A stretch of 64,000 nt of DNA, taken from NCBI RefSeq assembly GCF_017348835.2, contig NZ_CP071375.1. One strand, given 5' to 3'. The notes beneath the pieces were generated by a model. That model was not told the DNA's origin, did no database searches, and saw only the letters and a list, made by a program, of their open reading frames with translations. The position numbers and the translations under genes were made by a program. The stretch is from Escherichia coli (GTDB taxonomy: Bacteria > Pseudomonadota > Gammaproteobacteria > Enterobacterales > Enterobacteriaceae). This document shows, piece after piece, positions 4,501 through 62,346 of the stretch (within the stretch, counting starts at the first letter, position 1; each line of letters starts with the position of its first letter).

Positions 4501-5907
<1,407 letters not shown>

Positions 5908-5975
5908 GCCGGAAAAAAGGCGCCAGCATCGCATTAGGCAATAGCGCCCAGGCTACGCCAAATGCGCTCCCCTCG

Positions 5976-8900
5976 TCACTGGAAACAAGTAACCAGACCA
6001 GGTTTATTGGCTAACGTGATACAACAATCCTCTGTGCCAGTGCTCTCGTCCATCCCACACCGTTGAGAGGACAAGTAAGGGAAACTTGGCGAAGCTGGCC
6101 ATCCCAGCGAATTAAACACAGTATACAATGTCTCTAACTCATTGTATGTCGGTGCATTTTCTATATTTCCACACTGCTTCGAGATATCCCATTTGCTGGC
6201 ATCAGTAATATGCGCAGAAGCCCAGTTTTCGTAGTTAATAATCGGTGAGGATACGGGATTGGCCCCGGACGGTAATTCAGTTGTCAGTATCGGTCGATGT
6301 AATGTTTTTCCATTCACCACTGCCGTGTCTGCCATATGCCCCCAGAAGTGAGCAGAAGATACATTTGGGCTGGTCAATACGGTGAAAATAGTGTCCATCA
6401 TTGCAGTCACTGTTGGGTATTTATCCAGCGTTACCGTCAGCGGCATTTTATAACCCGGCGTATTGTCCTGACGAACAGTAAAGTTTGCCGTGCCGTCTGC
6501 CCCCGTCACGCCACTGATCTCGTTCCCACTAACCGCCAATAGGGTAGCCGCCCCCGATGATGGCTGGATGGTAATATCATCCATAGCCGCCACATCGCCA
6601 TATAGCGTCGCCCCACTATTACGCGGAGAGGCATCACCACGTCGCAGAGTAAACGCCACATTTGGCACAGGTTTCCCGGCGCTGTCTTTCACCGTCACGG
6701 TGACTGGCATTGCCTCGCCCTTCTTCACTTTCGCCGCCTGAGCGGTGGAGTCAAATGCCGTTGACGTCAGGGTGACGGTAGAAACCGTTGAGTGAGGGTG
6801 CACCAGGCACGCCTGGAAGGCGCGGCTTTTAGATACAGTCACAAGTTGACCTGTGTTGAAGTCAAATGATTCACAAGAATTCGCGCCCGCAGGACAATCT
6901 GCATTTGTCCACCACACATAGCTATTCTGTTTCACCGGCCAGCCAATCTCATTGACGATAGAGCCATTCGGATAGCGGTTGTATAAAGATTGAAGCTCAT
7001 CCAATGATGGATATCGTGCGCTTTCACAAGGGATAAGCTCCGGCAAATATCGCTGGGTAATATATGGCGCAGGCCAGCTTTCATTATTTATATTCACTTT
7101 AGTGAGCGAATAACCGCCACCGCTGGTTGCCCCCATTTCGGCCCACAGTTTCATCCGCTCAAACTGCGTTCCGTCTGCTGAGCTTACCGTTTCTGGCATA
7201 TGTCCCCAGAAGTTGGCTTTTGGCGTATCCGGGCTTGTTACTACGGTATACATCAGGTCGAGATCTGACTTTACCCCTGTTTCACGTGCAAGCGTCGCCG
7301 TAAACGGTGTTACCAGTCCCCAGGTATTATCCTGCGTAGCGGTTAACGTGATGATGCCATTACCGTCCGTAACCCCGTTCCAACTGGCGTTATCATCTGC
7401 AAATTTGTAATTGGCTTGCGCAACCGGCGTCAGGAACTGTAGCAGCAGATCATCTGCTGTCGAGCTTGTGAAATCACTCGGCGTGCGCACTTGTGCTGTC
7501 GCACGCGACAACCTGACGCTTTCATAGGCGGCAGGTCTGCCCGCATCATCCGTGACCTTGATAGTTAACGGTATTGATACGCCCTTCTTCGCCCATGCAG
7601 TCGGACGGTTGTCGTTGATGCCTGTTTTGTCCGCATTCAGCAACGTAGACGTCAACTCAATCGTCGTTGCCTCAGTGTGCGGGTCAACCAGGCAGAGCAT
7701 TAAATTGCCCGCCGTCGATGTTGTACTTTCGTTGCGGATAGCACCGCTCATCAGATCAAGCACCTGGTTATACCATGTTGAACTTGAAACAGTTTGGTCG
7801 TACGCCCACCAGTAATTACCTGCGTTAAGAGGCAGCCCCAAATCAGTTTCCAGCGCACCATTTGGATGGTCGTTGTAAAGCCCCATTAGCTCACTACTGA
7901 AGGGTTGATAAGGCGAAGTGCAGCCTGAGATCGAACTGTTCGCTTTGTTGGTTGCATCTGGTCGCGCCCAGTCTTCATTGTTGATATTAAAGGACGCAGT
8001 CCCGGACAACTCGGCCTTCAACTGTGGTCGCCTGAACGCGACGCCCGCGCTGCTGGTAAAGGTTTCCGGCATATGGCCCCAATAGTTAGCCTTCGGCGTA
8101 TCCGGGCTGGTGATCACTGTGAAAATCGCACTTAAAGATTGTGAAGCAATCGAACCATCGTCCAGTTTCGCCAACAACGGAATACGAACGCCATATCCTT
8201 TATGGAACTGATATACCGTCAACGTCGCCGTTCCGTCAGGCCCGGTAACACCATAAAAATCATCGCCCTCATTAATGATTGGCGTTTGATGATTGGATGA
8301 ATCCGTGATGTAAATTAATTTCGACTGGTAATCTGAACTTACTACATTCTGACGGCTAAGCGTCGCACCATGTTCCAGCAAGAAGGGTACATTACCCAGC
8401 AGATTTCCCTGCGCGTCGCGCGTTGTGACCTTAATGGTGATGAAATCATGATCAACTTCATAATTGGTTTTTGCTTTAACCCCCTGATTACCATCATAAA
8501 CCTGCGCTTGTTCAGAGGTTAACTCAATTGTGGCGACCTTCGGGTTAGCCGTTGTCTGGCAGGTTAAATACCCCCCTTTTGACTCCAGTACACTGCTGGT
8601 GCCATTACTCAGTTGCACACCAAGGTAATTACGATTACTTACGCTGGCACCATCGGCGGTGCTGGTGTCATAGACTTTTAATACTGGCCAGCCGTCTACA
8701 GCATGACCGCCCCAGCTTGTCGATAACGTGGTTAATGCATCTTTGGTCGGGATATTATCTGCGCCACAACCGTTATTTTTCGCATTCTTACTTGCCTGCG
8801 CTTCAGTAAACAGCGCCCAAATTTCGTTATCCTCTTCCGGGCTTTTACGTCCATTGCCGGGAGAACCACTCAGTTCTGAAAACAGGATCGGTCGCTTAAA

Positions 8901-11900
8901 CGTCAATCCTCCCGCTGTGAGTGTTTCTGGCATATGCCCCCACATTTTTGCCTTGTTAGTGTCAGGGCTGGTGACAACGGTAAAAATAGTGTCTAACGAT
9001 GCGTTTTTTGTTGGATCGGAATAGAGCGCAGCGGTAATTGCCGTTTTCGTGCCGTGAGTGTCCGGGCGGGTGATGGTGAGAATTTTGCTACCGTCACTCC
9101 CCGTTAACCCAGCGTATGCACTGGCAGTATCGTTAAGCGACATTTCATCTGACATTCCGGCATCCACCACGACCGGTGAAACGATCCCGTCACCGCTTCC
9201 TGCAATATGCTTTTCATTGCTACGGGTGTAACCATCGCCACGCTTCAGGGTAAAGGGCATTCCCGGCATCGGGTTACCCGCCGTATCTTTCACCGTGACT
9301 TTTACCTGTAGCGTTTCACCCTTTTTCAGTTTCGCTGCATTAAGCGTGCTATTCCACTGTGCCTGATCGACCACTTCCAGCGTAATGGTGCTGGCGGGTG
9401 GGTTAGCGTCCTTCAGGCAGGAGATATAAATTTCCGAGGAACTTGTTTGCACGTTTCCGTTATTCAGCCAAACCGCTGCAAAGTGCGGGACTTTATCGGT
9501 AGGCGTGCTACTCCAGTAAGGCTGGCGCTGAGTCGGCCAACCATGCTCAGTTTGAATCGCGTTATTACTGTTGGCGCGATAGAGCGCATCAAGCTGTGAC
9601 TGGCGTGGCACTTTATTGGCCTCACAACCGCCCACCGCGCTATTTTCGATCTCGGACTGATCGACGCGTAACCAGGTTTCATTATTTTCATCAAAGGGAC
9701 GCCCGGAACCGCTTACCTCCACCGCCAGTTTGGGGCGATTAAATGTAATAGAATCCACAGTTATCGTGTCATCCATGTGCCCCCACATTCTCGCTCCCAT
9801 CACATCCGGGCTGGTGGGAACCGTAAAGATTACATAGTAGTTAATGGTATTCGGCAGAACAGAATTAGGAGGCGTGACAACAAGTCGCGTTCTTAAGCCA
9901 ACGCCTTGTGGCTGCTCAACAACAACGGTTGCCTGCCCCTGTGCGTCTGTAATACCGGAGTAAACCATTGAGGATTGTGAGGTACCGTACTGCGTCCCAT
10001 TCAGGGTTATTGCGCCGTTACTGGGATCGGTAAACCCGGTTGCGCTTTCTTCACGGTCAAGACTGATATCTTTGGTAATAGTAAAAGCCGTGAACGGCAC
10101 CCGCTCGCCATTCAGAGCATTAACTGTGCGCACCGTCATGGTGATTTGTTCACCGACTTTCGCCCGTGCCAGGCTGCCCGAGGTAGTATCACGATCGGTT
10201 GTCACTTCAACCTTCGCCACCATCTCATTACCAGAGCACGAGAGATAGTTTTGTTTAAAACCGCTATAACTGTCGACGTTCCCTGTTCCGAGGTTTACCG
10301 ATGAATGCGTTGTCTGCTCCGCGGCAGTTAAATAGTCCTTTACTGCGGTTGGCCAGCCATACTCAGTCCCGATGATATTGCCAGGGTAAGCCGAATACAG
10401 ACTTTCCAGTGAGATCTCACGCGGTATATGCCCCGTGCCGCATTCTGCCTGCATACTGGTATTTTGATCGAATAACGCCCAGTCTTCGTTATTTTCCCGT
10501 ACTGTGCCTATTTCATGCGTGGTTTCAGCCGCCAGCAGCGGTCGTTTATATAAACTGCCAGCATCAATAATGCCGTGCATGTGGCCCCACATCCGCGCAT
10601 ATTCGCTGTCCGGACTGGTCACCACCGTAAAGACCACATCTTTGGCATCTTCAGCAGTGAAATTACTGCGCATTTTCGCCGTAATATGCGTTTTAACGCC
10701 TGCGCCGTCAGGCTGCGTCAGCAGCAGAGTTGCCTGACCATTGACGTCGGTCATTCCCTCATAATTATGATCATCTACCTTTTGCAGGTTGGTGCCGCCG
10801 GAAATTTGTACCGGATGCGCTTCCCACGCCGGATCGGTTTGATTTTTGCGGTTAACGCCGTCATCGAGATGCAGCGAGAAGTAGTAATAAGCCAGCGGCT
10901 GATTGTTATTTTTTTTATCGGTAATGGTCAGGCGTATCGTAGTGCTGTCACCGACCTCTGCCTTCGCGGCATTTATACTTTCATCAAAGTTACTGGGCGT
11001 GAGCACCAACTCTGGCTCAACATCGGGTTCTGCTTTATCCACACAGCTCACGATATACTTTGTACTGTCTGGTTTTTGCGCTTCGCTGCGGTTAGACACA
11101 TCAGCCGCGTGGTGCTGCCCGGTACTTCCTGCCAGAGATGACCAGTAATAATCACCCTGCATCGGCCAACCGGCGGTCTCCTGAATAGAGTTAGGGATCA
11201 CCGTAGCCAGCGCGCCAAACTGGCGCATGCCAGGCAAAATATCGCAGTGGTTATCTGCGCCACTCCAGGTGAAGGTCGACCAGGTTTCACCGTGATCGTT
11301 CACACTGCCATCTTCGTTATCAACTTCCGCCGCCAATTTCGGACGACTAAAGGTGTAATTCATGGCCGTCAGGGTTTCCGCCATATGGCCCCACATATTG
11401 GCCTGCGGGGCATCCGGGCTGGTGAGTACAGTAAATATCACCGCCGTTTCACTGGTTTGCGAGATGCCAGAAAGGCTGACCACCAGCGGCGTTTTGACAC
11501 CTGGACCATTGGGCTGCGTCACCGTGACGGTAGCTGCGCCATCAGCATTAGTCGTGCCCCGATACTCCGTTGCTGTGGTGGTGAGTTCAGTGGTATCAAG
11601 ATTGACAGGTGAGGTGTTATTCACCACTCCCTGGCGGTTTTCAGCATCTTTTCGTTTGATAACAAAAGGGATATTGCTCGCAATATTACCTTCACAATCT
11701 TGGGTGGTTACGGTTAAGGTGATTGAACCATCGACAGTAGTCTTTGCCGCTTGTAACGTATCGTCATAGCCACTGGCGCTAATTGTCACCAGGTCGCCCT
11801 GGGCGGGAGCAATATTCAGCGTCACTTTATGTTCAGCCAACGGCACCGTCCCCTGATTAGGCACACCAGTTAACGTGTAGAGGTAGAGTAAAGGTAGCGC

Positions 11901-12386
11901 TTCCTGCTCATTGATTCGCGGCCACGCCACCAAAGAACGCCCTGCCAGATTCTGCGCGCAGAAAGAGCGGTCCGGGCGCGGTTGTGGGCTGAGCGGCGTA
12001 TCTGGCGTCGCGGCATCCGTCCACACAAGAGATACAGCAGGAGGCGTCTGGTTTTGCCAGCCTAGCACGGGGGGATTAGAAAAAAGATCGCCTTCAGGAT
12101 CGTGAGGGTTAACCAGAATCATTCTCGCCGCTGTGTCATCAACACTGAATGCGCTGGGTTTTACAGATGCCTGAATGTCGTAGGTTTTGCTCGGATCAAG
12201 CTGAACGCTTCCCTGATAAACGGGTACGCTGGCGCTCTCTGCCCCGGGCACTGTGCCATTGATTGCGTCGGTCGAGATGCCAGTTTGTTGCCACTGGCCA
12301 CCTTTTAATACTGCCCCAACCTGAAAAGAGAGGAAGAGCAGAAAAACCGCCGTTATCGCTTTTATCAGTTTCAAAGTCCCGTCCAT
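5976..12386 (-). CDS. ratA: Giant repetitive secreted surface protein with seven Ig-like modules (RatA-like, CS54-island type)
   Basis: 2136-aa ORF with N-terminal signal peptide; an approx. 290-aa module recurs seven times, each ending in a T-V-(V/L)-T-S-P-D ... (M/F/Y)-W-G-H-M signature. Position next to sinI/sinH between xseA and yfgJ matches the Salmonella CS54 island. Confidence 0.7.
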
Positions 12387-12520
12387 GATTGAAACCTGCC
12401 CGTTTAAAGTTATTTTTTCACTTCAACCCACTTTGCTTAACGCTGGCTAAGCAAAGTGTGCGGAGAAGCACCATTCCCTTGCTGAAATGACCAGATTGTT
12501 GACAAAGTGCGCGTTATTCA

Positions 12521-12620
12521 TGCCGGATGCGGCGTTAACGCCTTATCCGACCTACAAAATCGTGCAAATTCAATACATTGCAGGAACCATGTAGGCCTGA
12601 TAAGCGAAGCACATCAGGCA
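12521..12620. repeat. REP elements (BIME-like pair)
   Basis: tgccggatgcggcgttaacgccttatccgacctac and inverted partner gtaggcctgataagcg...catcaggca match the E. coli REP consensus. Confidence 0.5.
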
Positions 12621-12676
12621 GTTTTGCCTTTGTCATCAATCTGACCATTCCCTTGCGGGAATGGTGCTGGTAAAGA

Positions 12677-13642
12677 TTATTTTCTCTGGTAATCGATGGA
12701 CAAACCGTAGCCCTGAACACCATCCGCGCCAAGGGTGAGGCCACCTTCGCTGTAGTCGAACGCAGTTTTCGCTTCGGCGTTGGTAACTGGGATAACCAGG
12801 TCGCTGTTGTTGTAGCTCGGGTTGACAATCCCACCGTTGGTACGCAGTTGCAGACTGGTACCGGTAAAGCGCCAGCGGTAGTTGTACTGGCTGGTAACCT
12901 CTTCGCCAGTGTCGTAGGAGCCGTTGCTGTTTTTATCTTTCCACAGCATGACCTGATAAGTGGTATTGGTTTTGAGTTTGGTTTCTTTGCCCAGCAGGTT
13001 GGTGTTAACACCCTGCTCATGAATGACAACTTTAACCGCATCGTCAAATACCGGACCTTCCGGAATATCATCGCTGTCAGAACCACCGCCCGCGTTGGTG
13101 GAGAGGTCTAACAGGATCAGTTGTTCTGCAACGTTAGGATCACCGGTCGTGGTGGTCGGGGTAATTTTCAAACCGATGTAGCGATCGGCATCCGCTGCGG
13201 CAATGGTATAGGTGTCACTGCCCGTTGTACCGATCTCTTTCGGATCACCCCCCGCCTGGTCGCTATAGCTCATCCATTGCAGCGTCGCTTTGGTTGCAGT
13301 GTTGTTGTCGTCAAGGTCGCCCTGGGTATCGCCAATGGCCCAGTTTGCAGTTAACTTGTCACCAATATGAAATTGCTTCTCGCCATCGGTTGAAGCAGAA
13401 CGTCCGCCACGATCAACGGTAATGGACACATGAGATTTATCGGCATCAGTCGTTTCTGACGCGCTACGGGTGATCCACGGCACGGTACCCTGAATCGTTC
13501 CGGTCGTTTGCGTCTCTGACTGCCACTGGCCCGCTCTAAGGTTGCCCTGCCCTTCTGCCATGGCGGCAGGCACTGCGCAGTACCCCGCTAAAGCCAGCGC
13601 CAGCGCGACTTTAGTCATCGGTCGCTTTAAATAGTGTTTCAT
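12677..13642 (-). CDS. sinI: Secreted protein, SinI-like (CS54-island type)
   Basis: 321-aa ORF with signal peptide MKHYLKRPMTKVALALALAGYCAVPAAMA; C-terminal approx. 90 aa are homologous to the C-terminus of the adjacent SinH-like protein. Confidence 0.6.
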   Translation of the reverse strand: MKHYLKRPMTKVALALALAGYCAVPAAMAEGQGNLRAGQWQSETQTTGTIQGTVPWITRSASETTDADKSHVSITVDRGGRSASTDGEKQFHIGDKLTANWAIGDTQGDLDDNNTATKATLQWMSYSDQAGGDPKEIGTTGSDTYTIAAADADRYIGLKITPTTTTGDPNVAEQLILLDLSTNAGGGSDSDDIPEGPVFDDAVKVVIHEQGVNTNLLGKETKLKTNTTYQVMLWKDKNSNGSYDTGEEVTSQYNYRWRFTGTSLQLRTNGGIVNPSYNNSDLVIPVTNAEAKTAFDYSEGGLTLGADGVQGYGLSIDYQRK

Positions 13643-13697
13643 TCAACTCTCTCCTTGATTAATTTCCAGCGGCTGGCCGATCGGCCATTACGCCGAT

Positions 13698-15878
13698 CTA
13701 GTGCTTGCTGTAAACCACACGTAATCCATACCCCTGCACGCCATCCTCTTTTTGGGCACCAAATTTCTGTACCGCTTCCTCGTTAGTGGCAGGGATGACA
13801 ATATCTTCATTACTGGTATTCGATTGCGCACCGGTGTAGCCATTGACGCTGTGTCCGGTAAATTCCCACTGGTAGTCGTATTGCGCCATTTCTTCTTCCG
13901 TCAGTTTTTCCGACTGCTGGAAAACGCCATCTTTGTTGACATCGCGCCACAGGACAAAACGATAGGCGTTATCAACAGGCAAATGCTCTTTCTCATTGCC
14001 GATAAGATTGATGGGGTTAGTCGCGGATACACGGTAGATAAAGGCATTAACATCGTTGCCCCCCGCGCCGAGGAAAGTCACATCGACATAGTTACTATCG
14101 TCATACGGTGCGGCCTTTGCTTTCCAGCGGAAGGTGCCGGGCAAAGTACTGGAGAGGGTGACGGTTCCTTTCTCTTTATCTTGCTTCGCGATAAAGACGC
14201 ACGGGTTATCGGTCGAGCAGGGTTTATTGGTGAGGGTGACTTTTTTATCCTGAGCATCGTAAAGCTGCGGACTCAGGCCATCTTCCGGCAGCGCATTACC
14301 GTTACGGTCAGTGTCATCACCAAAGCTATCGGTAACATCGAGATCCATCACCACGCCATCGACGCCATCCGCCTGAGCGCTGGCTTCATGACTGTGATTG
14401 TTTTCATCCGGCACATCCGCAATGTTGTTGACGATCAGTTCAATTTTGCGATCCTGCTGAACGGTGATTTCCACCACGCCGGAGTTTTGCCGGTTGCCTT
14501 TTTCATCTTCCAGAGCCAGACGCACGCGCCAGGTATTGAGTTTTTCCTGTTCGGCGGGATCAGAGCTGTACTGCCAGGCTGGCAGCACCAGATTCCAGTG
14601 GTTGTTGTTCCCTTCCGTGAGGGTATTTTCTTTGATAACCGGCATCACCAGAGTACGCGCAGCGTTGTTTCTCGCCTGCCAAGAGGCGACGACAATCTTA
14701 TAGTGATGATTGATTAGCGCATTGATTGTCCACTTACATTTTTCCAGCCCTACCGCAGCTTCGGGGGTGTCCTTGATGACACAATCCGGGTGTTCATTGG
14801 TGGCGTCAGCCTTCAGCCACAACGTAACGTCGAGAGGATCTTTTTCTTTATATTCCAGAACAATAAAATTATTGCGCTCAACAAAGTCATGGCGGCTGCC
14901 CATCAGCGAGTGAGCTGCTTTGACGTTATCGCTATTCAGTTGATCTTTTAGCGGAACACCGAACTGATAGTTAATCGTGGCGTTAACGCTAAGATCACTG
15001 TTATCTCCGGTACCTGCTTTATAATCCGTCCCGACCGTCAGTAACGGAACGGGTTGATAGTTCACGCCAAGCGTCACTGCATAGGGATCTTTTTCTAAAT
15101 TATCGGTGCCGAAGAGCGCCACTTCGTCACCATAATATTGCTCGAAAACAATTTTGCTCCCCAACTGAGGATAAGAAGGAAGCCTGGCTTCCGCCCGGAC
15201 ATCCCAGCCACGTGCGGGGCGTTCTAAATAGAAATCAAAATCTTTTGAATCTTTCCACTCTGAAAGCGGATGATAATAGTTACCAGAAAATTTTAAATAA
15301 TCCGTCCAGGCTTCTGTTCCCAAACCTAAACGGCGATGTCCGCGGGTGAAATCATAATCATAAAATATATTCCCCCCCAGAAGCCATTTATCAAAATTAT
15401 GTCTTACACCTAAACCTATATTACCTATCGTGCGTTCTTCTTTTCGTTGCGCAGAAAACTGACTGAAATAGACTGTGCTCTGATTGTCATACCAGGGGAC
15501 AAAATAGTCGATTGAACTGCCGTCCAGATCGCCACCCTGACCGATGGAAAGGTTAGAGCGAACTTTACCATAAGGAGAAAGCGCACCTTCGATATAAGAC
15601 TGTGCAGATGATGTGATTTGCCCTTGCAGATAGCTTCTCGCCTGGGATTCAAGAGCTTCTGGAGTCAGGTTCTCAAAGCCCTGCTGGGCGGACTCGGTAA
15701 CGTAATTGGCACCACGTTCCTTGAAAGATTTGCCTTTGTTACTTTGTTCCTCTTGTTGAGCCGTTTCGCTTGCCAGATCAGGTAATGAAGATTCGCTTTG
15801 CTTAATATTTATCTCCGGTGCCGCATAAGCAGCACCAGAAATAACGATTAGCGTTATATAGCGAATCCATCGCAGCAT
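13698..15878 (-). CDS. sinH: Intimin/invasin-family outer-membrane adhesin (inverse autotransporter), SinH-like
   Basis: 726-aa ORF with signal peptide; aromatic-rich N-terminal region typical of the intimin/invasin beta-barrel, then extracellular domains; AT-rich upstream region. Confidence 0.7.
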   Translation of the reverse strand: MLRWIRYITLIVISGAAYAAPEINIKQSESSLPDLASETAQQEEQSNKGKSFKERGANYVTESAQQGFENLTPEALESQARSYLQGQITSSAQSYIEGALSPYGKVRSNLSIGQGGDLDGSSIDYFVPWYDNQSTVYFSQFSAQRKEERTIGNIGLGVRHNFDKWLLGGNIFYDYDFTRGHRRLGLGTEAWTDYLKFSGNYYHPLSEWKDSKDFDFYLERPARGWDVRAEARLPSYPQLGSKIVFEQYYGDEVALFGTDNLEKDPYAVTLGVNYQPVPLLTVGTDYKAGTGDNSDLSVNATINYQFGVPLKDQLNSDNVKAAHSLMGSRHDFVERNNFIVLEYKEKDPLDVTLWLKADATNEHPDCVIKDTPEAAVGLEKCKWTINALINHHYKIVVASWQARNNAARTLVMPVIKENTLTEGNNNHWNLVLPAWQYSSDPAEQEKLNTWRVRLALEDEKGNRQNSGVVEITVQQDRKIELIVNNIADVPDENNHSHEASAQADGVDGVVMDLDVTDSFGDDTDRNGNALPEDGLSPQLYDAQDKKVTLTNKPCSTDNPCVFIAKQDKEKGTVTLSSTLPGTFRWKAKAAPYDDSNYVDVTFLGAGGNDVNAFIYRVSATNPINLIGNEKEHLPVDNAYRFVLWRDVNKDGVFQQSEKLTEEEMAQYDYQWEFTGHSVNGYTGAQSNTSNEDIVIPATNEEAVQKFGAQKEDGVQGYGLRVVYSKH

Positions 15879-16087
15879 GTTTTTCCCTGTGAAAATTTAA
15901 TTCTGAAATAATGTCTAATATTGTATTCCAGATAGCACAGGAACTGCACTCCATAAGTGCTAAATATAATCTTAAAATTATAAGAATGTGACTTTACACA
16001 TTTTTAATTAGTCGTTAATCTAATAGGAAAGAGATTATAATATTTATATTAGGAATATATAATGTGAAATCATATATTCCAGTGATA

Positions 16088-16303
16088 TTAAACAATGACA
16101 AATTCAATACGGGTTTTAGAAATTAAACCGTGACCATGCAGGCAGAAATAATCCACCGCACCACACGCTTTTAATACCTGCAACGGTTGGTGGCAGTCAG
16201 GACAAAGAGCCTGGACTATGAAATCTTTGTTACACGTTGCGCAGTGAGTAGCCTCGCCATTACGTTCGAGAGGGTTTTGGCAGATTGGGCAGCTGAGTTC
16301 CAT
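16088..16303 (-). CDS. yfgJ: Small zinc-ribbon protein YfgJ
   Basis: 71-aa ORF with two CxxC pairs (CPICQ...CATC; CPDC...CLHGH); conserved position upstream of der. Confidence 0.8.
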   Translation of the reverse strand: MELSCPICQNPLERNGEATHCATCNKDFIVQALCPDCHQPLQVLKACGAVDYFCLHGHGLISKTRIEFVIV

Positions 16304-16365
16304 AAATGATCCTCACATTTTTATGGGTTTCCCTCTCCATATGGAAAGGGAAACCAGATAAGTAA

Positions 16366-17838
16366 TTACTTACTTTTCTTGATATGCTTCATCAGGCGCT
16401 TACGCTTGCGCATCTGGGTCGGCGTCAGGGTGTTACGCTTATTCGCATACGGGTTTTCCCCTTCTTTGAACTGAATACGAATCGGCGTCCCCATCACATC
16501 CAGAGACTTGCGGAAATAGTTCATCAGATAACGCTTGTAGGAATCCGGCAGGTCTTTTACCTGGTTACCGTGAATCACCACAATCGGCGGGTTATAGCCA
16601 CCTGCGTGAGCATACTTCAGCTTCACACGACGACCACGTACCAGCGGCGGCTGGTGATCTTCAACTGCCATGGTCATAATACGTGTCAGCATAGACGTTC
16701 CCACACGACGGGTGGAGCTGTCATACGCTTCACGTACTGATTCAAACAAGTTACCAACACCACTGCCGTGCAAGGCAGAGATAAAGTGCACACGAGCAAA
16801 ATCGATAAAGCCCAGACGGAAGTCCAGCGTTTCTTTCACCTGCTCTTTCACTTCCTGACTCAGGCCATCCCACTTATTCACCACAATGACAAGTGAGCGC
16901 CCACTATTGAGAATAAAGCCCAGCAGCGAGAGATCCTGATCGGAAATACCTTCGCGCGCATCAATCACTAACATCACCACGTTGGCATCTTCAATGGCCT
17001 GCAACGTTTTGATTACGGAGAATTTCTCTACAGCATCGGTGATTTTGCCGCGTTTACGTACGCCAGCGGTGTCAATGAGCACATACTCACGTCCATCGCG
17101 TTCCATTGGGATGTAGATGCTGTCACGCGTCGTGCCAGGCATGTCGTAAACAACAACGCGCTCTTCACCAAGAATACGGTTAGTGAGTGTAGACTTACCT
17201 ACGTTCGGACGACCCACAATCGCCAGTTTGATCGGCAGACTTTGCGGGTCGAAGTCGTCTTCCTCTTCTTCTTCGCCGTTCTCTTCCGCTTCAAATTGCG
17301 CCCAGTATTCAGCGTCTTCGTCGACTTCCTCTTGCGGTGCGAGATCTTCCATCCACGGCAGCAGCACATGCTCCAGCAGACTTAATACGCCACGACCGTG
17401 AGACGCGGCGATCGGGTAGATTTCACCTAAACCAAGCGAGTAGAAATCAACCACTGCCTGATCGGGATCCAGACCGTCAGTTTTGTTTGCCACCAGGAAG
17501 GTCGGTTTTTCACGGGAGCGCAGATGTTTGGCAATCGCTTCATCTGCCGGCATCAGGCCCGCGCGCGCATCCACCATAAACAGTACGACGTCCGCTTCTT
17601 CAATCGCCAGCAGCGACTGTTCCGCCATGCGGGTTTCTACACCGTCTTCTGTGCCATCAATCCCGCCGGTATCAATACAGATAAACTCACGGCCTTCAAT
17701 TTCCGCACGACCGTACTTACGGTCACGAGTCAGACCCGGGAAATCCGCAACCAGCGCATCTCGGGTGCGAGTTAGACGGTTAAATAACGTGGATTTTCCT
17801 ACGTTAGGGCGCCCGACAAGCGCGACCACAGGTACCAT
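16366..17838 (-). CDS. der: Ribosome-associated GTPase Der (EngA), two GTPase domains
   Basis: ORF track 16366..17877; start trimmed to [22 protein letters not shown] (490 aa) with GAGG Shine-Dalgarno 8 nt upstream; two G1 motifs GRPNVGKS. Confidence 0.93.
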
Positions 17839-25486: not shown

Positions 25487-26341
25487 TTATGGTGTTCTCA
25501 TCCCATAGCGATGACGTTGGCAATAAAGACAATTTTGCGCATTTTGCTGAAAAGTAAGAAAGGATTTTTGACAGGTTTTACAGACTTTGCGATTAGCATG
25601 AAGATTCACAATTTTTGCCGGTAGAATCGTCAATTCAACGGTCATTGCCTGATGAAAACAAACAGCAATACAATTTTGGCATCCGTTACACAAGGCATCA
25701 TTTATTTGTAAATGGCCTTCGTTAAGCGAAAAGACCTGTTGCTCGCAGGCCCGCCAGCATGCACCGCAAAGCTGACACTTTTGAGGATCCATCATCGGGC
25801 GAGCATCACTAATCTGGGGCCAAAAATAATGTAACCGACGTAATCCTGGTTGTATTTGTGTCATCTGAACATCCGCACGCTGCACATGGAACAAACGACG
25901 CCGGGAAACATTCACCTCACTGGTATGTGGAGATACCACAGACCAGCCTTCCTCGCCATATTGCCGTAAGCGTTCGTTTAACAGCAATAATGCGCGCTCC
26001 CATGCCTTCGCCTGACTCAGATCAATCGCGATCGCTGTGATCCCCTGCTCTTTATGCCATAGCAAAAGTTCTTCCAGCGTCGGCGCAATAGTGGTGAAAG
26101 GTGCGACCAGGGTGTGATTGCGAAAATAACGTAAAGGGGAATTAACGCCACGAATAGCCTCTTGCGGGCAAATAAACTGGCAAACCGCACACTCAATACA
26201 TTGTTCCGCGTCGACCGCTACGCCCTCTTCTGTCAGCGTTAGCGCCTGTGCCGGGCAAGCCTCGACACAGGCATGACATGTTGCAAAACGAAAGCGTTGG
26301 CGCGCGCATTCCGCGCCAATCGTTATGTTATGACTTAACAT
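25487..26341 (-). CDS. Poly-ferredoxin-like protein ([4Fe-4S] CxxCxxCxxxC motifs plus C-terminal CxxC...CxxC), last gene of the Dms-like operon
   Basis: 284-aa ORF with CIECAVCQFICP, CQLCGACWRAC, CNGCQNCIAVC and CKTC...CLYC; stop/start overlap with the upstream gene at 26341. Confidence 0.6.
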   Translation of the reverse strand: MLSHNITIGAECARQRFRFATCHACVEACPAQALTLTEEGVAVDAEQCIECAVCQFICPQEAIRGVNSPLRYFRNHTLVAPFTTIAPTLEELLLWHKEQGITAIAIDLSQAKAWERALLLLNERLRQYGEEGWSVVSPHTSEVNVSRRRLFHVQRADVQMTQIQPGLRRLHYFWPQISDARPMMDPQKCQLCGACWRACEQQVFSLNEGHLQINDALCNGCQNCIAVCFHQAMTVELTILPAKIVNLHANRKVCKTCQKSFLTFQQNAQNCLYCQRHRYGMRTP

Positions 26342-27162
26342 TAGCCGATACTAAAAAAGACAAAACGCAGCATAACTTCACTCCCCACTAGCATTACGCT
26401 ACCGAATAACGCCGCCGGGATATTCTTTTTACAACCACCGACAGCAAAGAACATCATCCCAATGACGGAAATTCCCCAGCTTAGTGTCAGTATGGGTTTT
26501 AACTGTCCCAGCATCGCTAATGGCGCATGTGGCAATGTGGCTATCTGCATCGCATTTGCCGTTAAATCCCCTATCCACAACGGCTGAACCAACAAGCGCA
26601 ACAGAACCAGGAGAGCGATCACCAATACGCATCCATTACGCAGGGCATCAATCTGCGGCAAAATTCCGCTAATACGAAACACGGCTACCAGCGCTGAACC
26701 GAGAATTCCCACTGTACCTAAGAACATAATCAGCGTGTTGTAATGCTGCCAGGTGATAATCGACGTATGGATGTAAACTTGCGCCATGCAGAAAACATCA
26801 ACAATCCCGACCACTGCCGCTAGCATAAGCAGGAGTTGCCAGCCGCCTTTGCGTAACATGACCAGTAATGTGGATAAACCCAATAGCGCCAGATACAGCG
26901 TACCAAAGATAATTTCCCGACTCAGCCATGAACTGGAAAAGTGACTTAGCGCATGCATCGCATTAAGTGGATAACCCAGGTGTAAGGTAGAAATCAGTAA
27001 CCCTACGGCCCCTGCCAAAAAAGCCAACAGTAATGGCGGCCGCATAACCGGGCGGGCGCTGGAGGTGATTAAAATATGACGATGAAGAAACGCCAGCCAC
27101 AGCGTCATACCGACCGATGCCTGTAACAACAGCGTAAAAGCCATTAACGGTAATTCATGCAT
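26341..27162 (-). CDS. DmsC-family membrane anchor subunit of a DMSO-reductase-type enzyme
   Basis: 273-aa polytopic membrane protein; N-terminus MHELPLMAFTLLLQ resembles the DmsC/YnfH start; overlaps the B-subunit stop by 8 nt. Confidence 0.65.
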   Translation of the reverse strand: MHELPLMAFTLLLQASVGMTLWLAFLHRHILITSSARPVMRPPLLLAFLAGAVGLLISTLHLGYPLNAMHALSHFSSSWLSREIIFGTLYLALLGLSTLLVMLRKGGWQLLLMLAAVVGIVDVFCMAQVYIHTSIITWQHYNTLIMFLGTVGILGSALVAVFRISGILPQIDALRNGCVLVIALLVLLRLLVQPLWIGDLTANAMQIATLPHAPLAMLGQLKPILTLSWGISVIGMMFFAVGGCKKNIPAALFGSVMLVGSEVMLRFVFFSIG

Positions 27163-27784
27163 GATGTGACGCCTCCTTTTCCGCGCCCTGATGCGGTTTA
27201 ATCACCAGATTTGGCTGCGTAATCGACGAATCAGGTAAACCTTTCACATCACTGACATCGCCATACTTTTCACGCAACTCATCAATAGGGCCGAACTTAA
27301 TCGCCCCCAACGGGCACGTTGCCACGCAAATGGGTTGTTCTCCTTTAGCTTGCAGATCAATACAGAAATCGCATTTCGACATCTGCCCGGTCTGCTCATT
27401 CATTTGCGGTGCGCCGTAAGGACAGGACCATGCGCAGTAACCGCAACCGACGCACTTATCAGTATTCACGCGCACAATACCGTCTCCGGGACGCTTATGC
27501 ATCGCCATCGTCGGGCAATTTTTGGTACAGATCGGATCCGCGCAATGGTTACAGGAAACAGAAAGGGTATAAGCAAAGACATTATGACTCACACCGCCCT
27601 CTCCAGTGGCGATAAAGCCACCGCCGTTCACTTCATACACGCGGCGAAAACGTCGCCCAACCTCAAGGTTGTTTTTGTCTTTACAGGCCACCTGACACGC
27701 TTTACAGCCAGAACAACGCGAAGAGTCAATAAAGAACCCTAATTGTTTGTCGCTGACAGATGCAAATTCTTTAAATTGGCTCAT
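27155..27784 (-). CDS. DmsB-family four-cluster [4Fe-4S] ferredoxin subunit
   Basis: 209-aa ORF with four Cys-cluster motifs (CKACQVAC, CNHCADPIC, CVGCGYCAWSC, CDFC...C); overlaps the A-subunit stop by 4 nt. Confidence 0.8.
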   Translation of the reverse strand: MSQFKEFASVSDKQLGFFIDSSRCSGCKACQVACKDKNNLEVGRRFRRVYEVNGGGFIATGEGGVSHNVFAYTLSVSCNHCADPICTKNCPTMAMHKRPGDGIVRVNTDKCVGCGYCAWSCPYGAPQMNEQTGQMSKCDFCIDLQAKGEQPICVATCPLGAIKFGPIDELREKYGDVSDVKGLPDSSITQPNLVIKPHQGAEKEASHHA

Positions 27785-30162
27785 GCTTTCTCAACCTCCA
27801 CCAGCATTGTTTGATGTGAATTCCCTTTCGCCAGCGCCGTAATGCGGGTCGAACTCAGTACATTGGCGCAGCCTCCGCGATCAATACCTTGTGCATCCGG
27901 TTGCCACCATGCCCCCGCCTGCATAGCAACTACGCCAGGGATGATACGGGGGGTTATTTCCACCGGGATAATGCTCACACCACGATCGTTATAAATTTTT
28001 ACGCTATCTCCTTCGACAATCCCGCGCTGTTTTGCATCTTGCGGATTCAGCCAGAGTTTTTGCGTCTGAACTTCTTGCAGCCACGGGTTAGCATACTGGG
28101 TGGAATTAGCACGGTTTTTCCCTTTCCAGGTGATGAGCTGCAACGGGTATTTCGCCGTCAGTTTATCTTCTGGCCCTTCAAAGGCAGGGACATAGTGCGA
28201 AAGCGCGGGAATTTCTGGATCTTGCATATCAAAAAGACGCTTAGAGAAGATCTCAATTTTGCCGGAAGGCGTCGGGAAAGGATTATTCTGCGGATCGCGA
28301 ATATTTGCTTCGAAAGCGATGTGCGGCGCGCTTTTGAAAAGATGTCGACGTGTTTTTTGCAGGGTCGCGAAGTCCGGCAAATTTTCATCCGGCATCGCCA
28401 GACGAGTTTGCTCCCAGATATGCTCGATCCATTGCTTCTCATCACGTCCTTGACTGAACTCGGCTTCGACACCCAGTTTTTTCGCCACGTCACGCAACCA
28501 GTCATAATCGGTGCGACGTTCAAACTCCGGCTCAATCAGTTTTTCTGACAGAATGAGATAGCTCGCCGTTCCCCATGTTTCGCCGATATTCCAGCGTTCC
28601 ATAAAGCTGGTTTCCGGCAGCAACACATCGGCATATTTCGCGCTCGGAGTCATGAACAGATCGCTGAGTACGATGAATTCTATTTTAGATTCGTCTTCAA
28701 GGAGCTTCGCGGCCTGGTGGACGTCCGGGTTCTGGTTCGCCAGATAATTACCTGCCAGTGAGAACAGCAGGCGGATATTACTGTCGAGTTTATCGACACC
28801 TTTAAGCCCATCTTGTGGCGTAACTTTAGAAGCATCATCCGCCGCCTGCATCCAGTTCATAATCGAGATTTTCGCTTGTACCGGATTTTCTGGCATATCT
28901 GGTCCAACGCAGAATTTACGATTAGAACTACCGCCATAACCTGCCGCCCAGCCACCTTTGATGCCGACGTTACCGGTAATCGAGGCCAGTAAAGTTGAAC
29001 CTCGGGCGGTGCGTTCGCCGCAAATATGTCGCTGCGGTCCCCATCCCTGAATCAACGCTGCGGGTTTCGTGTTGGCGTAATCACGGGCCAGTTGACGAAT
29101 AGTTTGCGCTGGAACGTGGGTAATTTTTTCTGCCCATTCCGGCGTTTTGTGTATCCCATCTTTTGCGCCAAAAAGGTAGGCAACCAACGATTCGTTGGCT
29201 GGTACGCCTTCCGGCATGGAGTTTTCATCAAAACCGAGAGTATATGTGTCGATAAATGTCTTATCATGGAGATTCTCGCTGATAATGACGTACATCATCG
29301 CGTCCATCAACGCATTGTCCGTGGTCGGCAACAGCGGGATCCACTGATCGGCAAGTGAAGATACGGTGTCGGAATAGCGCGGATCCACCACGATAAAACG
29401 TGTACCGTTTTGCTTCATTTTTTGAAAATAGTAATTGGTGTGACCGAATATGGTTTCCGTTGGGTTATGCCCCCAGAGAATCACCAGTTTGGTATCCAGA
29501 AGAGTATCCATCGAGTTACCGCTCGCGGCCACGCCATACGTGTAAGGCGTGGCCGCCGCAGTATTACCCAGACTAACTGAGTGATAATATTCAAGATAAC
29601 CACCGGTTAAATTTAACAGCCGACGCGCCATCGCATCGCCAGAAAATGTTCCACCAGAAACAGCCGTCCCGACATGGACATAACGTGAAGCCGGGCCATA
29701 TTGTTGCGTGATCCTTTTCAGGTTATCGGCAATTAAGGTCGTCGCCTCATCCCATGAAATACGCTCAAATTTCCCCTCGCCCCGTTTACCGACCCGTTTC
29801 ATCGGATATTTCAGGCGGTCTGGATGATAAACAAATTTACGATAGCCGCGACCACGAACACAGGCGCGCATAATCGGCATTTGTGGATCCAATTCGTTAT
29901 CGGGAAGCGTGGTAATTTGCGTCACCACACCGTCGCACATATGCGCCCGAATATCGCACTTACCACCGCAGTCAAATGTGCTACAGGTGGGCACGACTTT
30001 ATCAGCTACTGGAGCTGTAACTTCTGGCGACGCATCTGGGGATTGCGCCTTTGCGGTAGAAGAAATAAAAGGCAAAGTGATAAGCGCGGAAGTCGCTTGT
30101 AAAAAACTACGTCGTGATACTTGCGGAAATGTAATGCGTTCCTTTTCGTCTGGCGTATCCAT
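27781..30162 (-). CDS. Tat-exported molybdopterin oxidoreductase catalytic subunit (DMSO reductase family, DmsA/YnfE-like)
   Basis: 793-aa ORF with twin-arginine signal (SRRSFLQATSAL...AKA) and an N-terminal Cys cluster (CSTFDCGGKCDIRAHMCDG) typical of the FS0-binding region. Confidence 0.85.
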   Translation of the reverse strand: MDTPDEKERITFPQVSRRSFLQATSALITLPFISSTAKAQSPDASPEVTAPVADKVVPTCSTFDCGGKCDIRAHMCDGVVTQITTLPDNELDPQMPIMRACVRGRGYRKFVYHPDRLKYPMKRVGKRGEGKFERISWDEATTLIADNLKRITQQYGPASRYVHVGTAVSGGTFSGDAMARRLLNLTGGYLEYYHSVSLGNTAAATPYTYGVAASGNSMDTLLDTKLVILWGHNPTETIFGHTNYYFQKMKQNGTRFIVVDPRYSDTVSSLADQWIPLLPTTDNALMDAMMYVIISENLHDKTFIDTYTLGFDENSMPEGVPANESLVAYLFGAKDGIHKTPEWAEKITHVPAQTIRQLARDYANTKPAALIQGWGPQRHICGERTARGSTLLASITGNVGIKGGWAAGYGGSSNRKFCVGPDMPENPVQAKISIMNWMQAADDASKVTPQDGLKGVDKLDSNIRLLFSLAGNYLANQNPDVHQAAKLLEDESKIEFIVLSDLFMTPSAKYADVLLPETSFMERWNIGETWGTASYLILSEKLIEPEFERRTDYDWLRDVAKKLGVEAEFSQGRDEKQWIEHIWEQTRLAMPDENLPDFATLQKTRRHLFKSAPHIAFEANIRDPQNNPFPTPSGKIEIFSKRLFDMQDPEIPALSHYVPAFEGPEDKLTAKYPLQLITWKGKNRANSTQYANPWLQEVQTQKLWLNPQDAKQRGIVEGDSVKIYNDRGVSIIPVEITPRIIPGVVAMQAGAWWQPDAQGIDRGGCANVLSSTRITALAKGNSHQTMLVEVEKA

Positions 30163-38994: not shown

Positions 38995-39120
38995 ATGAAG
39001 ATACGGTGCTTCTGTATCGTACTTATTGTTTCTGGTGCGCTGTTAACCGAGGTAAATAATAACCTGAGTCTCTCCGGCGACAATTTACTGGTGGTTAACA
39101 ACCTTCAGAGCAGCAAGTAA
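38995..39120 (+). CDS. Small hydrophobic protein, candidate type I toxin (RyfA/TimP-like), copy 1
   Basis: 41-codon ORF MKIRCFCIVLIVSGALLTEVNNNLSLSGDNLLVVNNLQSSK followed directly by a terminator; an in-frame ATG 12 nt upstream is an alternative start. Confidence 0.45.
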   Translation: MKIRCFCIVLIVSGALLTEVNNNLSLSGDNLLVVNNLQSSK

Positions 39121-39152
39121 GCCCGAATGCCGCCCTTTGGGGCGGCATATTT
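39121..39152 (+). terminator. Rho-independent terminator of toxin transcript 1
   Basis: gcccgaatgccgccctttggggcggcat followed by attttag. Confidence 0.5.
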
Positions 39153-39156
39153 TAGA

Positions 39157-39237
39157 TTATCCGATTCTGTTTAAAGTCACGCAAAAAACCACCCCAGCGA
39201 CGTTCATAGAATGGCGCAATATGTTCGATATTAAAAT
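39157..39237 (-). pseudogene. Duplicated 3' fragment of sseB (about 26 codons)
   Basis: Minus-strand translation ...IEHIAPFYERRWGGFLRDFKQNRI* matches the SseB C-terminus; homology to 39830..39907 stops abruptly at 39237. Confidence 0.55.
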
Positions 39238-39351
39238 GACCTGGCTTATTAGTCCGAATTCAGACAAATATAAACAAATCCCGCTCAATATTAAAAATAC
39301 TAACCGGTAAAAGATATTACTTAAACATGTAAATTCACTTTCTTTAAGCAA

Positions 39352-62322: not shown

Positions 62323-62346
62323 CTTCAGGTTCCTCGGTAAAATTCA

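Follow-up and report, generated by a model that had tools for sequence, protein, structure and literature searches.

The sinH-sinI-ratA gene cluster of Escherichia coli was published as the ila locus, with its sinH gene named iatB (PMC12928451, PMC12525524, PMC6714894). IatB (SinH) is located on the cell surface, is induced by LeuO and promotes biofilm formation, which in K-12 it does by itself with no need for the downstream gene, and it is scarcely expressed under laboratory conditions (PMC6714894). SinH was also reported to be a protective surface antigen (PMC9937491), and Ig-like domains and surface exposure were described for SinH alleles other than the one reported here (PMC9937491, PMC6714894). 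The sinH and sinI genes are co-transcribed, and ila mutants were attenuated in a mouse UTI model (PMC12525524, PMC12928451). These functional data all come from other alleles, those of ExPEC, SMS-3-5 and Salmonella. In Salmonella, the CS54 island has five genes in the order xseA-shdA-ratB-ratA-sinI-sinH-yfgJ. The Salmonella ZirTSU system is composed of the inverse autotransporter ZirT and the secreted proteins ZirS and ZirU; its analogy to the sinH cluster is already in print (PMC4943183, PMC6714894), as is the idea of SinH as a ZirT-like translocator for SinI and Rat proteins (PMC4943183).

The window, a 64,000-nucleotide stretch of E. coli DNA analysed as a whole, contained three intact minus-strand open reading frames of 2136, 321 and 726 aa within positions 5908–16087. 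They were exactly those that an earlier sequence-only reading had described. The locus and its flanks were composed of the following features.

4531–5907, plus strand: core gene xseA on the left flank; identity to K-12 drops to 93% in the final ~800 bp
5908–5975, no strand: xseA–ratA spacer, 68 bp between convergent stops, GC 0.618; on the minus strand, a GC stem and then UUUUUU
5976–12386, minus strand: gene of a Rat-like protein of 2136 aa (ratA by position), with an apparent signal peptide, an N-domain (aa 1–196) and seven BIg21 + InvE_AD units
12387–12676, minus strand: sinI–ratA spacer with two conserved hairpins
12490–12643, no strand: BIME of two REP sequences in the loop of hairpin 1 (Rfam ES036, 52.4 bits; naRNA4, 35 bits)
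12677–13642, minus strand: sinI, 321 aa, with an apparent signal peptide, an N-terminal module as in Rat proteins and a C-terminus that is paralogous to the final domain of SinH
13698–15878, minus strand: sinH, 726 aa, an intimin-like inverse autotransporter by NCBIfam, Pfam and structure matches
15879–16087, minus strand: sinH upstream spacer, AT-rich (GC 0.249), presumed to hold the promoter and silencing sequences; two weak matches of sigma-70 type
16088–16303, minus strand: yfgJ, the right flanking gene, a strongly diverged allele with ~81% identity to K-12 across only about half its length

In K-12 (C600), xseA and yfgJ were convergent with a 4-bp overlap and were followed by der, the adjacency that the sequence-only reading had given. 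The alignment of K-12 to the window stopped at 5825 and resumed at 16087, bracketing the extra DNA. Since the xseA tails of the window and K-12 still aligned as protein, the extra DNA was assigned to 5908–16087, bounded by the stop codons of xseA and yfgJ. The window was 100% identical to E. coli PE164 (NZ_CP114128.1), a pig isolate in which the three genes are annotated; their RefSeq names are sinH, "SinI family autotransporter-associated protein" and "adhesion domain-containing protein". By inspection, the N-termini of all three proteins resembled Sec signal peptides: MLRWIRYITLIVISGAAYA before AP in SinH, a second ending in ALALAGYCAVPAAMA before EG, and a third ending in 15 residues not shown here. 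The 10 kb that separate xseA from yfgJ here are almost certainly the E. coli sinH-sinI-ratA surface-adhesin cluster ("ila", similar to Salmonella CS54), a reading that was favoured by the protein searches, the domain searches and the K-12 alignment alike. The cluster has already been described as the ila locus with IatB, so the find is an ordinary one; the copy in the window is a rare, intact allele at the usual xseA/yfgJ site.

When compared with the ila locus of ExPEC strains such as CFT073, ST131 and SMS-3-5, the window cluster shared the site, gene order, strand, domain architecture and RefSeq product names. SinH was 85% identical, most differences being found at its two ends, in residues 1–63 and the final domain, whereas SinI and RatA were only 45% and 55% identical, and the RatA protein had seven units (2136 aa) against nine (2693 aa). 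The islands of extraintestinal pathogens invoked by the sequence-only reading are thus the same published ila cluster but not the same allele, and by sequence the window cluster is a different allele class. When compared with Salmonella CS54, the site, as defined by yfgJ and der, and the sinH-sinI-rat order were common to both, and the proposed match to CS54 minus shdA and ratB agreed with the Salmonella order der-yfgJ-sinH-sinI-ratA-ratB. The hairpins of the sinI–rat spacer were also shared. However, three genes stood in place of the five of CS54, with one rat gene and not two, no shdA, and a distance from rat to xseA of just 68 bp.

The SinH protein was divided into an N-terminal barrel and a C-terminal passenger.

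14868–15689, minus strand: SinH beta-barrel translocation domain, aa 64–337 (Pfam IAT_beta PF11924, E 7.8e-105)
13701–14846, minus strand: SinH passenger, aa 345–726, of which the last ~115 aa (nt 13710–14051) were SinI-like

SinH matched the SinH equivalog model NCBIfam NF033423 with 1481.1 bits (cut-off 999), residues 1–726 being aligned to model positions 1–730, and was 74% identical to Salmonella SinH over its full length; its assignment to the intimin/invasin family in the earlier reading was well founded. Residues 102–344 matched the barrel crystal structures of invasin and intimin (4E1T, E 2e-71; 4E1S, E 3e-63), and the barrel was N-terminal to the passenger, as in inverse (type Ve) autotransporters. 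SinH is therefore well supported as a type Ve autotransporter whose 12-stranded barrel, of intimin/invasin type, spans residues ~100–344 behind a putative Sec signal peptide. Pfam detected no Big domain in residues 338–726 and, in SinH as a whole, no LysM domain and no Big_1 repeats. The SinI-like end of the passenger was the most variable part between alleles. SinH is very likely a surface adhesin. By analogy with other alleles, for which display and phenotypes have been published, surface display of the ~380-residue C-terminal passenger as an adhesin and biofilm factor is well supported.

The sinI gene lay directly downstream of sinH, with a gap of 55 bp, and its product was composed of two distinct regions.

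13295–13552, minus strand: SinI N-terminal module, aa 31–116, with family-invariant W40, T47, G52, P55 and W56 (pLDDT 57–69)
12680–13039, minus strand: SinI C-terminal domain, aa 202–321, 33–44% identical to the SinH C-terminal domain

SinI scored 419.8 bits against NCBIfam NF040711 (cut-off 165) and was 66% identical to Salmonella SinI, which bore out the proposed relation. It contained no barrel and had no Pfam match; its predicted structure consisted of two beta-sandwich domains, and residues 212–321 matched the SinH model (E 1.8e-19). The N-domain matched the ZirU family model with an E-value of 2e-8 and 34.5 bits, below the cut-off of 100. We infer from this match a remote relationship of the SinI N-domain to ZirU, one of the proteins that ZirT carries as cargo.

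The Rat-like protein was built from tandem units behind an N-terminal domain, and no beta-barrel was found in it.

5979–11798, minus strand: seven BIg21 + InvE_AD units, aa 197–2136, ~268–291 aa each, from domain matches and D1/D2 periodicity
12066–12311, minus strand: Rat-like N-terminal module, aa 26–107, homologous to the SinI N-terminus, with LKGGQWQ..ST.AINGTVP and D-x-EGD motifs

Four BIg21 and four InvE_AD domains alternated in the first 1200 aa, and seven unit junctions were located across the full length. The units were 25–38% identical among themselves, and each resembled the Ig and adhesion-domain tip of a solved "putative invasin" (5N40; unit match E 1e-29). The N-domain matched all three Rat models, and the architecture was that of the Rat family (DUF823/DUF824, equivalent to BIg21/InvE_AD); this domain was not the best-conserved part of the protein, with 61% identity against 77% for units 1–2. 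The protein fell below the equivalog cut-offs for Salmonella RatA (NF011843; 1638 against 3700), RatB (NF011842; 1945 against 4079) and the E. coli RatA-like protein (NF011844; 3237 against 3870). It was about equally far from Salmonella RatA (43% identity) and from the available N-terminal part of RatB (49%), and its seven units compared with six in Salmonella RatA. The name ratA in the sequence-only reading was therefore right as to the Rat-family BIg21/InvE_AD repeat architecture but not as to equivalence with RatA.

Transcription probably begins in the AT-rich sequence that precedes sinH, a probable target of H-NS/LeuO like the one reported for iatB. The flanks had been called AT-rich; this held for the sinH upstream spacer but not for the GC-rich xseA–ratA spacer. 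The GC stem and UUUUUU of the latter may be a ratA terminator; the folding energy of this spacer was no better than that of shuffled sequences. In the sinI–ratA spacer, the arms of conserved hairpin 1 (12657–12668 and 12467–12478) were kept apart by the inserted BIME, and in relatives this hairpin was followed by a U-run. Conserved hairpin 2 was at ~12428–12462, and 12 of the 27 pairs in the spacer hairpins showed compensatory changes. The window shared the BIME with Escherichia sp. E1V33, whereas E. whittamii, E. coli E69, Citrobacter and Salmonella lacked it. The terminator-like conserved hairpin 3' of sinI probably curbs read-through into ratA.

The window allele class was found in ~48 of 5426 complete E. 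coli genomes, for example in O145:H28 STEC, and in isolates from pig, calf and baboon. The order xseA-ratA-sinI-sinH-yfgJ was also found in E. whittamii, other Escherichia, Pseudocitrobacter, Citrobacter, Superficieibacter, an Enterobacteriaceae and Salmonella; for Salmonella it was read from the yfgJ side, and E. albertii showed only the sinH-sinI-yfgJ part, on a contig without xseA. A recently acquired pathogenicity island, transferred horizontally into the xseA/yfgJ site, would be in line with a review that describes the locus as horizontally acquired (PMC12525524) and with the presence of sinH in 1570 of the 5426 genomes, ~71% of them, including K-12, being without it. The sinH DNA identity of only 78–81% between E. 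coli allele classes, with nothing in between, also favours acquisition, and the unusually diverged flanks adjoining the cluster (86–93% to K-12) fit import by homologous recombination. Such a recent origin is nevertheless unlikely in view of the shared gene order across these taxa. Neither was the cluster a classical horizontally acquired genomic island, as no integrase or transposase was found inside it, neither of its ends had direct repeats, the window contained no tRNA, and the gene GC (0.48–0.53) equalled the background (0.52 across the whole window). SinH and SinI divergence roughly followed that of the flanks in several species, and the mosaicism seen, for example, in E. whittamii (SinH 97%, SinI 92%, RatA only 63% identical to the window) is explained by recombination between pre-existing alleles. 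Because of the synteny in at least five genera and the background GC, the word "inserted" used in the earlier reading is not supported; the cluster is a long-resident polymorphic locus and not a fresh insertion. It is very improbable that the cluster has fallen silent or is in decay and no longer has a function in this strain. The AT-rich promoter region typical of H-NS-silenced genes, the scarce expression of iatB in the laboratory (PMC6714894), the conserved hairpin broken by the BIME, and IS insertions or deletions in the locus of some related genomes point in that direction. However, all three open reading frames were intact, including the 6.4-kb repeat gene, a second isolate from pig had an identical 10-kb copy, and ~45 genomes had intact relatives with ~96% identity. 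Domain-level conservation across genera further points to purifying selection.

The layout of the cluster resembled ZirTSU, with an inverse autotransporter gene followed by genes of barrel-less, signal-peptide-bearing Ig-fold proteins. The ZirTSU partners are secreted; for SinH, secretion of partners is a prediction, and ZirTSU has no counterpart of the giant Rat repeat protein. When compared with intimin and invasin, classical type Ve proteins, the SinH barrel was homologous and the Rat units resembled the invasin-type tip (5N40), whereas the SinH passenger was short, LysM and Big_1 were not detected by Pfam, and the tip-like adhesion modules were located in seven tandem copies on a separate barrel-less protein. 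Apparent signal peptides, but neither barrel nor anchor, were present in SinI and in the Rat-like protein; these two would therefore reach the periplasm and need help beyond it. Both appear to start, right behind the signal peptide, with a common module of ~80–150 residues. Its motif was present at residues ~32–55 in all the RatA and RatB proteins examined, in all SinI proteins but one (E. albertii, in which the W was missing), and in no SinH examined. The two modules shared 11 of 21 residues by BLASTP and were related by hhalign with a probability of 94–95% (E 1.5e-7 and 1.8e-8). The module profile matched only 73 clusters among 1.84 billion representatives, at residues ~23–113 in the strongest matches on non-fragment proteins; all ten matches checked were SinI- or Rat-family proteins, and no Zir protein was retrieved by this search. 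Among the families checked, the module was found only in SinI and Rat proteins. The motif region was family-invariant yet of only moderate confidence in the monomer model. Separately, the motif appeared to co-vary between two allele types, which may reflect one inherited event.

SinH could also be a self-contained adhesin, with SinI and the Rat protein being periplasmic (perhaps serving SinH as Ig-fold chaperones or as regulators) or exported otherwise, and the common module reflecting descent or domain shuffling. This is a real possibility at somewhat less than even chances. IatB by itself yields biofilm in K-12, intimin and invasin structures have their own linker filling the barrel pore (cited in PMC4943183), and a folded 2136-aa repeat protein would be a hard cargo for a 12-stranded barrel. 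However, the three genes were linked in every genus examined, the module was limited to two co-encoded families and located at the mature N-terminus, and ZirT with ZirS and ZirU provides a precedent (PMC4943183) to which the ZirU-like SinI N-domain adds. A periplasmic role also makes little sense for Rat units that resemble receptor-binding invasin tips. Given the common module and the kinship of the SinI N-domain with ZirU, a ZirTSU-like two-partner mode is considered the most likely mechanism, and SinH-dependent export of SinI and RatA is put forward tentatively, by analogy, at odds clearly below even. Counting against it are the ZirU match below the family cut-off, the module search that retrieved no Zir protein, and the Rat N-domain, which is less conserved than units 1–2.

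The window cluster is very probably the E. coli ila locus, the counterpart of the sinH-sinI-ratA part of CS54, with a proposed ZirTSU-like mechanism. In this mechanism, SinH or its passenger would receive SinI and the Rat protein through their common N-terminal module and bring them to the surface. There, the seven invasin-tip-like Ig and adhesion-domain units of the Rat protein may provide multivalent binding.

The sinH–sinI–ratA cluster was located between xseA and yfgJ and consisted of three open reading frames on one strand, with exactly the coordinates and sizes claimed in the sequence-only reading. The quoted names are those of the RefSeq annotation of the pig isolate E. coli PE164, whose chromosome (NZ_CP114128.1) was 100% identical to the window.

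5976–12386, minus strand, Rat-like gene (positional ratA), 2136 aa, "adhesion domain-containing protein"
12490–12643, BIME composed of two REP sequences, within the loop of hairpin 1, the first of two in the sinI–ratA spacer, Rfam ES036 (52 bits) and naRNA4
12677–13642, minus strand, sinI, 321 aa, "SinI family autotransporter-associated protein"
13698–15878, minus strand, sinH, 726 aa, "sinH: intimin-like inverse autotransporter SinH"

In the K-12 strain C600, xseA and yfgJ were convergent with a 4-bp overlap and were followed by der, in agreement with the K-12 gene order given in the sequence-only reading. The K-12 alignment to the window matched up to 5825 and resumed at 16087. Since the final 27 codons of xseA were diverged alleles and not new sequence, the extra DNA was assigned to 5908–16087, from the stop codon of xseA to that of yfgJ. 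The K-12 xseA tail was also considered as a remnant of island DNA and was rejected, as no significant matches were found and the tails were diverged alleles that could be aligned as protein. The GC content of the island genes was 0.48–0.53, compared with 0.52 for the window. AT-rich flanks had been expected on both sides; the spacer upstream of sinH was AT-rich, with a GC content of 0.249, whereas the xseA–ratA spacer was not (0.618). The signal peptides of all three proteins were seen by inspection only. Promoter and terminator scans gave counts equal to those of shuffled sequence, and the hairpin 3′ of ratA folded no better than shuffles. The der–yfgJ spacer contained a 20-nt near-perfect palindrome, GGTTTCCCTCTCCATATGGAAAGGGAAACC (16326–16355).

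Protein and domain searches bore out the proposed relationship to RatA, SinI, and SinH. SinH, at 1481 bits, passed the cut-off of the NCBIfam SinH equivalog (999 bits), and its only Pfam domain was IAT_beta (residues 64–337). Residues 102–344 matched the solved barrels of invasin and intimin with E values of 2e-71 and 3e-63, respectively. SinI scored 420 bits on its family model (cut-off 165), gave no Pfam match even at an E value of 10, and likewise found nothing in a PDB sequence search. The Salmonella proteins were 74% (SinH) and 66% (SinI) identical to those of the window. Judged by cross-hits with E values of 1e-19 to 1e-22, the last ~110 residues of SinI are paralogous to the last domain of SinH. 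Concerted evolution of these C-terminal domains was rejected because their identity inside a locus (33–44%) was no higher than across loci, and no homogenisation inside loci was found. The SinI signal peptide (residues 1–29; 13556–13642) was unusually conserved among 55 sequences that were otherwise 45–86% identical. Leu16, Ala19, Gly20, Cys22, and Ala29 were invariant and Tyr21 was nearly invariant, and the resulting LAGYC stretch was no canonical lipobox.

The Rat-like protein was composed of an N-domain of ~196 residues and seven BIg21 + InvE_AD units. The mutual identity of the units was only 25–38%, which indicates an old array without recent tandem expansion. One unit matched the solved "putative invasin" 5N40 with an E value of 1e-29, and each unit therefore resembles the Ig and adhesion-domain tip of an invasin-type passenger; a literature search for PDB entry 5N40 turned up no accompanying publication. 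The protein scored below all three Rat equivalog cut-offs (RatA, RatB, and E. coli RatA-like), and shared 43% identity with Salmonella RatA and 49% with the first 1372 residues of RatB. The gene is thus called ratA by position only.

The cluster is already known and annotated, and is represented here by a rare allele class. The fetched Salmonella locus had the order der–yfgJ–sinH–sinI–ratA (1865 aa)–ratB (2435 aa). The CS54 island of Salmonella has ratB and shdA, both of which were missing from the window locus, so that the window order was the Salmonella order without these two genes, as had been proposed. The E. coli cluster (sinH, sinI, ratA) has been published as ila, "probably derived from CS54", and ila mutants were attenuated in mouse urinary tract infection (PMC12928451). 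Co-transcription of sinH and sinI is also published (PMC12525524). The protein SinH is also known as IatB, which is surface-located, biofilm-promoting, and induced by LeuO (PMC6714894). SinH is a vaccine candidate and occurs mostly in phylogroups B2, D, F, and G (PMC9937491). Because the literature largely covers the locus, the earlier reading of the cluster was supported and the feature was already known. In this literature, no description was found of an N-terminal module shared by SinI and Rat proteins or of conserved spacer hairpins, and only these two points go beyond it.

The earlier reading had described the island as inserted between xseA and yfgJ. A synteny scan, using one genome per species and exact peptide words, found the order xseA–rat–sinI–sinH–yfgJ in E. 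whittamii, Escherichia sp. E1V33, two further Escherichia lineages, three Pseudocitrobacter species, two Citrobacter species, Superficieibacter, and one further Enterobacteriaceae genome. The scan missed Salmonella, which was recovered via a SinI protein search. In E. albertii, only the yfgJ–sinH–sinI side was visible on a short contig without xseA. Each complete locus in the scan contained one rat gene, of 1852–2997 aa. No integrase was found inside the island and no tRNA in the 64-kb window, and the ends of the island lacked direct repeats. Compared with the window, E. whittamii was 97% identical in SinH, 92% in SinI, and only 63% in RatA, and Escherichia sp. E1V33 was collinear and 93% identical throughout. 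In such identities, the island alleles are mosaic across species. The synteny across genera, the background GC content, the missing mobility signatures, and the mosaic alleles together point to an old, polymorphic locus and are at odds with a recent insertion.

The flanking sequences also differed from K-12. The identity was 93% over the final 800 bp of xseA (5001–5825) and 86% in the first 900 bp past the island (16088–17000; yfgJ plus the der 3′ end), returned to 99–100% beyond these stretches, and was mostly 98–100% in the rest of the window. The K-12 yfgJ was about 80% identical to that of every island-bearing lineage, with no single one closer as the source allele of the empty site. Old haplotypes appear to be tied to the presence or absence of the island, and recombination breakpoints would lie near the indel and between sinI and rat. 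The empty K-12 haplotype may derive from either an ancient deletion or import. Damaged loci were also observed: ratA was split into two open reading frames in the locus of one Escherichia lineage (locus L007, 13338–19765), sinH was interrupted in that of another (locus L018, 10001–12958), and several E. coli genomes matched to the island (H44, H62, and H63) had IS insertions in the locus. These cases suggest recurrent inactivation.

Among 5426 complete E. coli genomes, sinH was present in 1570. The sinH gene was at least 95% identical to that of the window in 48 of these and 78–81% identical in all others, with none between. In 47 genomes, matches covered at least 80% of the 10-kb island; among these 47 were O145:H28 STEC as well as pig, calf, baboon, human, and wastewater isolates. 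The ExPEC-type locus of strain 1450 was 85%, 45%, and 55% identical to the window in SinH, SinI, and RatA, respectively. By segment, its SinH was 71% identical in the signal region, 89% in the barrel, 83–92% in the passenger domains, and 74% in the last domain. The ExPEC-type RatA had nine units, whereas the window protein had seven; units 1–4 and the last unit paired one to one, and the central units were the most different. The window SinI was nearer to SinI of Salmonella, Citrobacter, Kluyvera, and Superficieibacter (66–74%) than to that of ExPEC E. coli.

The sinI–ratA spacer (12387–12676) contained two hairpins kept from Salmonella to Escherichia, with compensatory changes in 12 of 27 pairs. 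With a U-run on its 3′ side, hairpin 1 resembles a terminator or an attenuator downstream of sinI. Hairpin 2 was located at about 12428–12462, some 45 nt before the start of ratA, and was also found in the compared loci L002, L005–L018, and L028. It had an invariant core, TTTGCTTA...TAAGCAAA, and a covarying stem base, and may serve as an operator or as part of a ratA leader. The BIME insert of ~175 bp, with a 20-nt flanking duplication, was common to the window and Escherichia sp. E1V33 and missing in other relatives. Despite the BIME, the window spacer folded far better than shuffles (z = -8.7). The Rfam search gave REP-derived families only (ES036 and naRNA4); a fluoride riboswitch match was dismissed as chance (E value of 0.85).

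Directly after the signal peptide, the window SinI contained the motif LRAGQWQSETQTTGTIQGTVP, to which a 21-residue stretch of the Rat-like protein corresponded. The motif, L-K-x-G-x-W-Q...T-x-x-I-x-G-T-x-P, occurred once per protein at residues ~32–55 in all SinI but one and in all of the RatA and RatB proteins examined; the Trp was missing in E. albertii SinI. The motif was found in none of the SinH proteins examined. BLASTP of SinI against Rat aligned only the 21-residue stretch. Profile–profile comparison extended the homology to ~80–150 residues, with D-T-E-G-D following the motif at the same spacing (probability of 94–95%, E values of 1.5e-7 and 1.8e-8). In the window proteins, this module was placed at residues 31–116 of SinI and 26–107 of the Rat-like protein. 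The Rat N-domain matched the SinI model weakly (E value of 0.063), and the SinI N-domain matched the ZirU family (E value of 2e-8). Against 1.84 billion representatives, the module profile matched only 73 clusters, and 10 of 10 matches checked were SinI-family or Rat-family proteins. The strongest matches on non-fragment proteins covered about residues 23–113, and weaker multi-stretch matches occurred elsewhere.

The SinI motif residues were invariant in the 55 sequences, yet they fell in a lower-confidence part of the monomer model (pLDDT of 57–69), which would fit a segment ordered only on a partner. SinI and Rat had matching motif variants per allele type, ..T-x-x-I-x-GTVP or ..T-x-EF-x-GT-x-P, although this pairing may reflect one historical event because the genes are linked. 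ZirT-like export of SinI and Rat-like proteins by SinH is a hypothesis in print (PMC4943183, PMC6714894), and is possible, if doubtful. If such a two-partner mode exists, the N-terminal module is the strongest candidate for its signal for docking or secretion. In a fuller scheme of a two-partner type Ve system, the shared module would act like the TPS domain of TpsA proteins and be recognised by SinH, and the terminator-like sinI–ratA hairpin would set the cargo-to-translocator ratio; this scheme as a whole is rather unlikely.

Several other regions of the window differed from K-12 or were otherwise unusual. A four-gene DMSO/selenate-family reductase cluster (25487–30162), consisting of A, B, and anchor subunits and a 4Fe-4S protein, was located between pbpC and ndk, which are directly adjacent in C600; 25479–30333 had no K-12 alignment. 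A local duplication at 38995–39798 gave two copies of timP, a small toxin gene, and a partial extra sseB; K-12 has one timP, and the identity to K-12 falls to 87–94% in this region. The window begins inside a tyrosine recombinase/integrase gene (1–952) adjoining guaA. Beyond this gene, PE164 has a LuxR regulator and a RepA-family helicase, and the counterpart site in K-12 has yfgI and yfgH. A second island, probably mobile, lies just outside the window. The yphE gene, encoding a sugar ABC transporter ATPase (62325–63858), is annotated as frameshifted in PE164.

Genome annotation is little affected by these results, with the genes named in RefSeq and the locus published. The shared N-terminal module of SinI and Rat offers a concrete handle on the proposed export by SinH. 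SinH is an ExPEC vaccine antigen in development, and the window allele class is found in O145:H28 STEC and in animal isolates. Since the SinH of this class differs most in the domain used for immunisation (the last domain, 74% identity), cross-protection should not be assumed. The locus is commonly viewed as a horizontally acquired ExPEC island; the synteny across genera and the normal base composition argue instead for an old enterobacterial locus that is polymorphic and has undergone loss in particular lineages and exchange of alleles.
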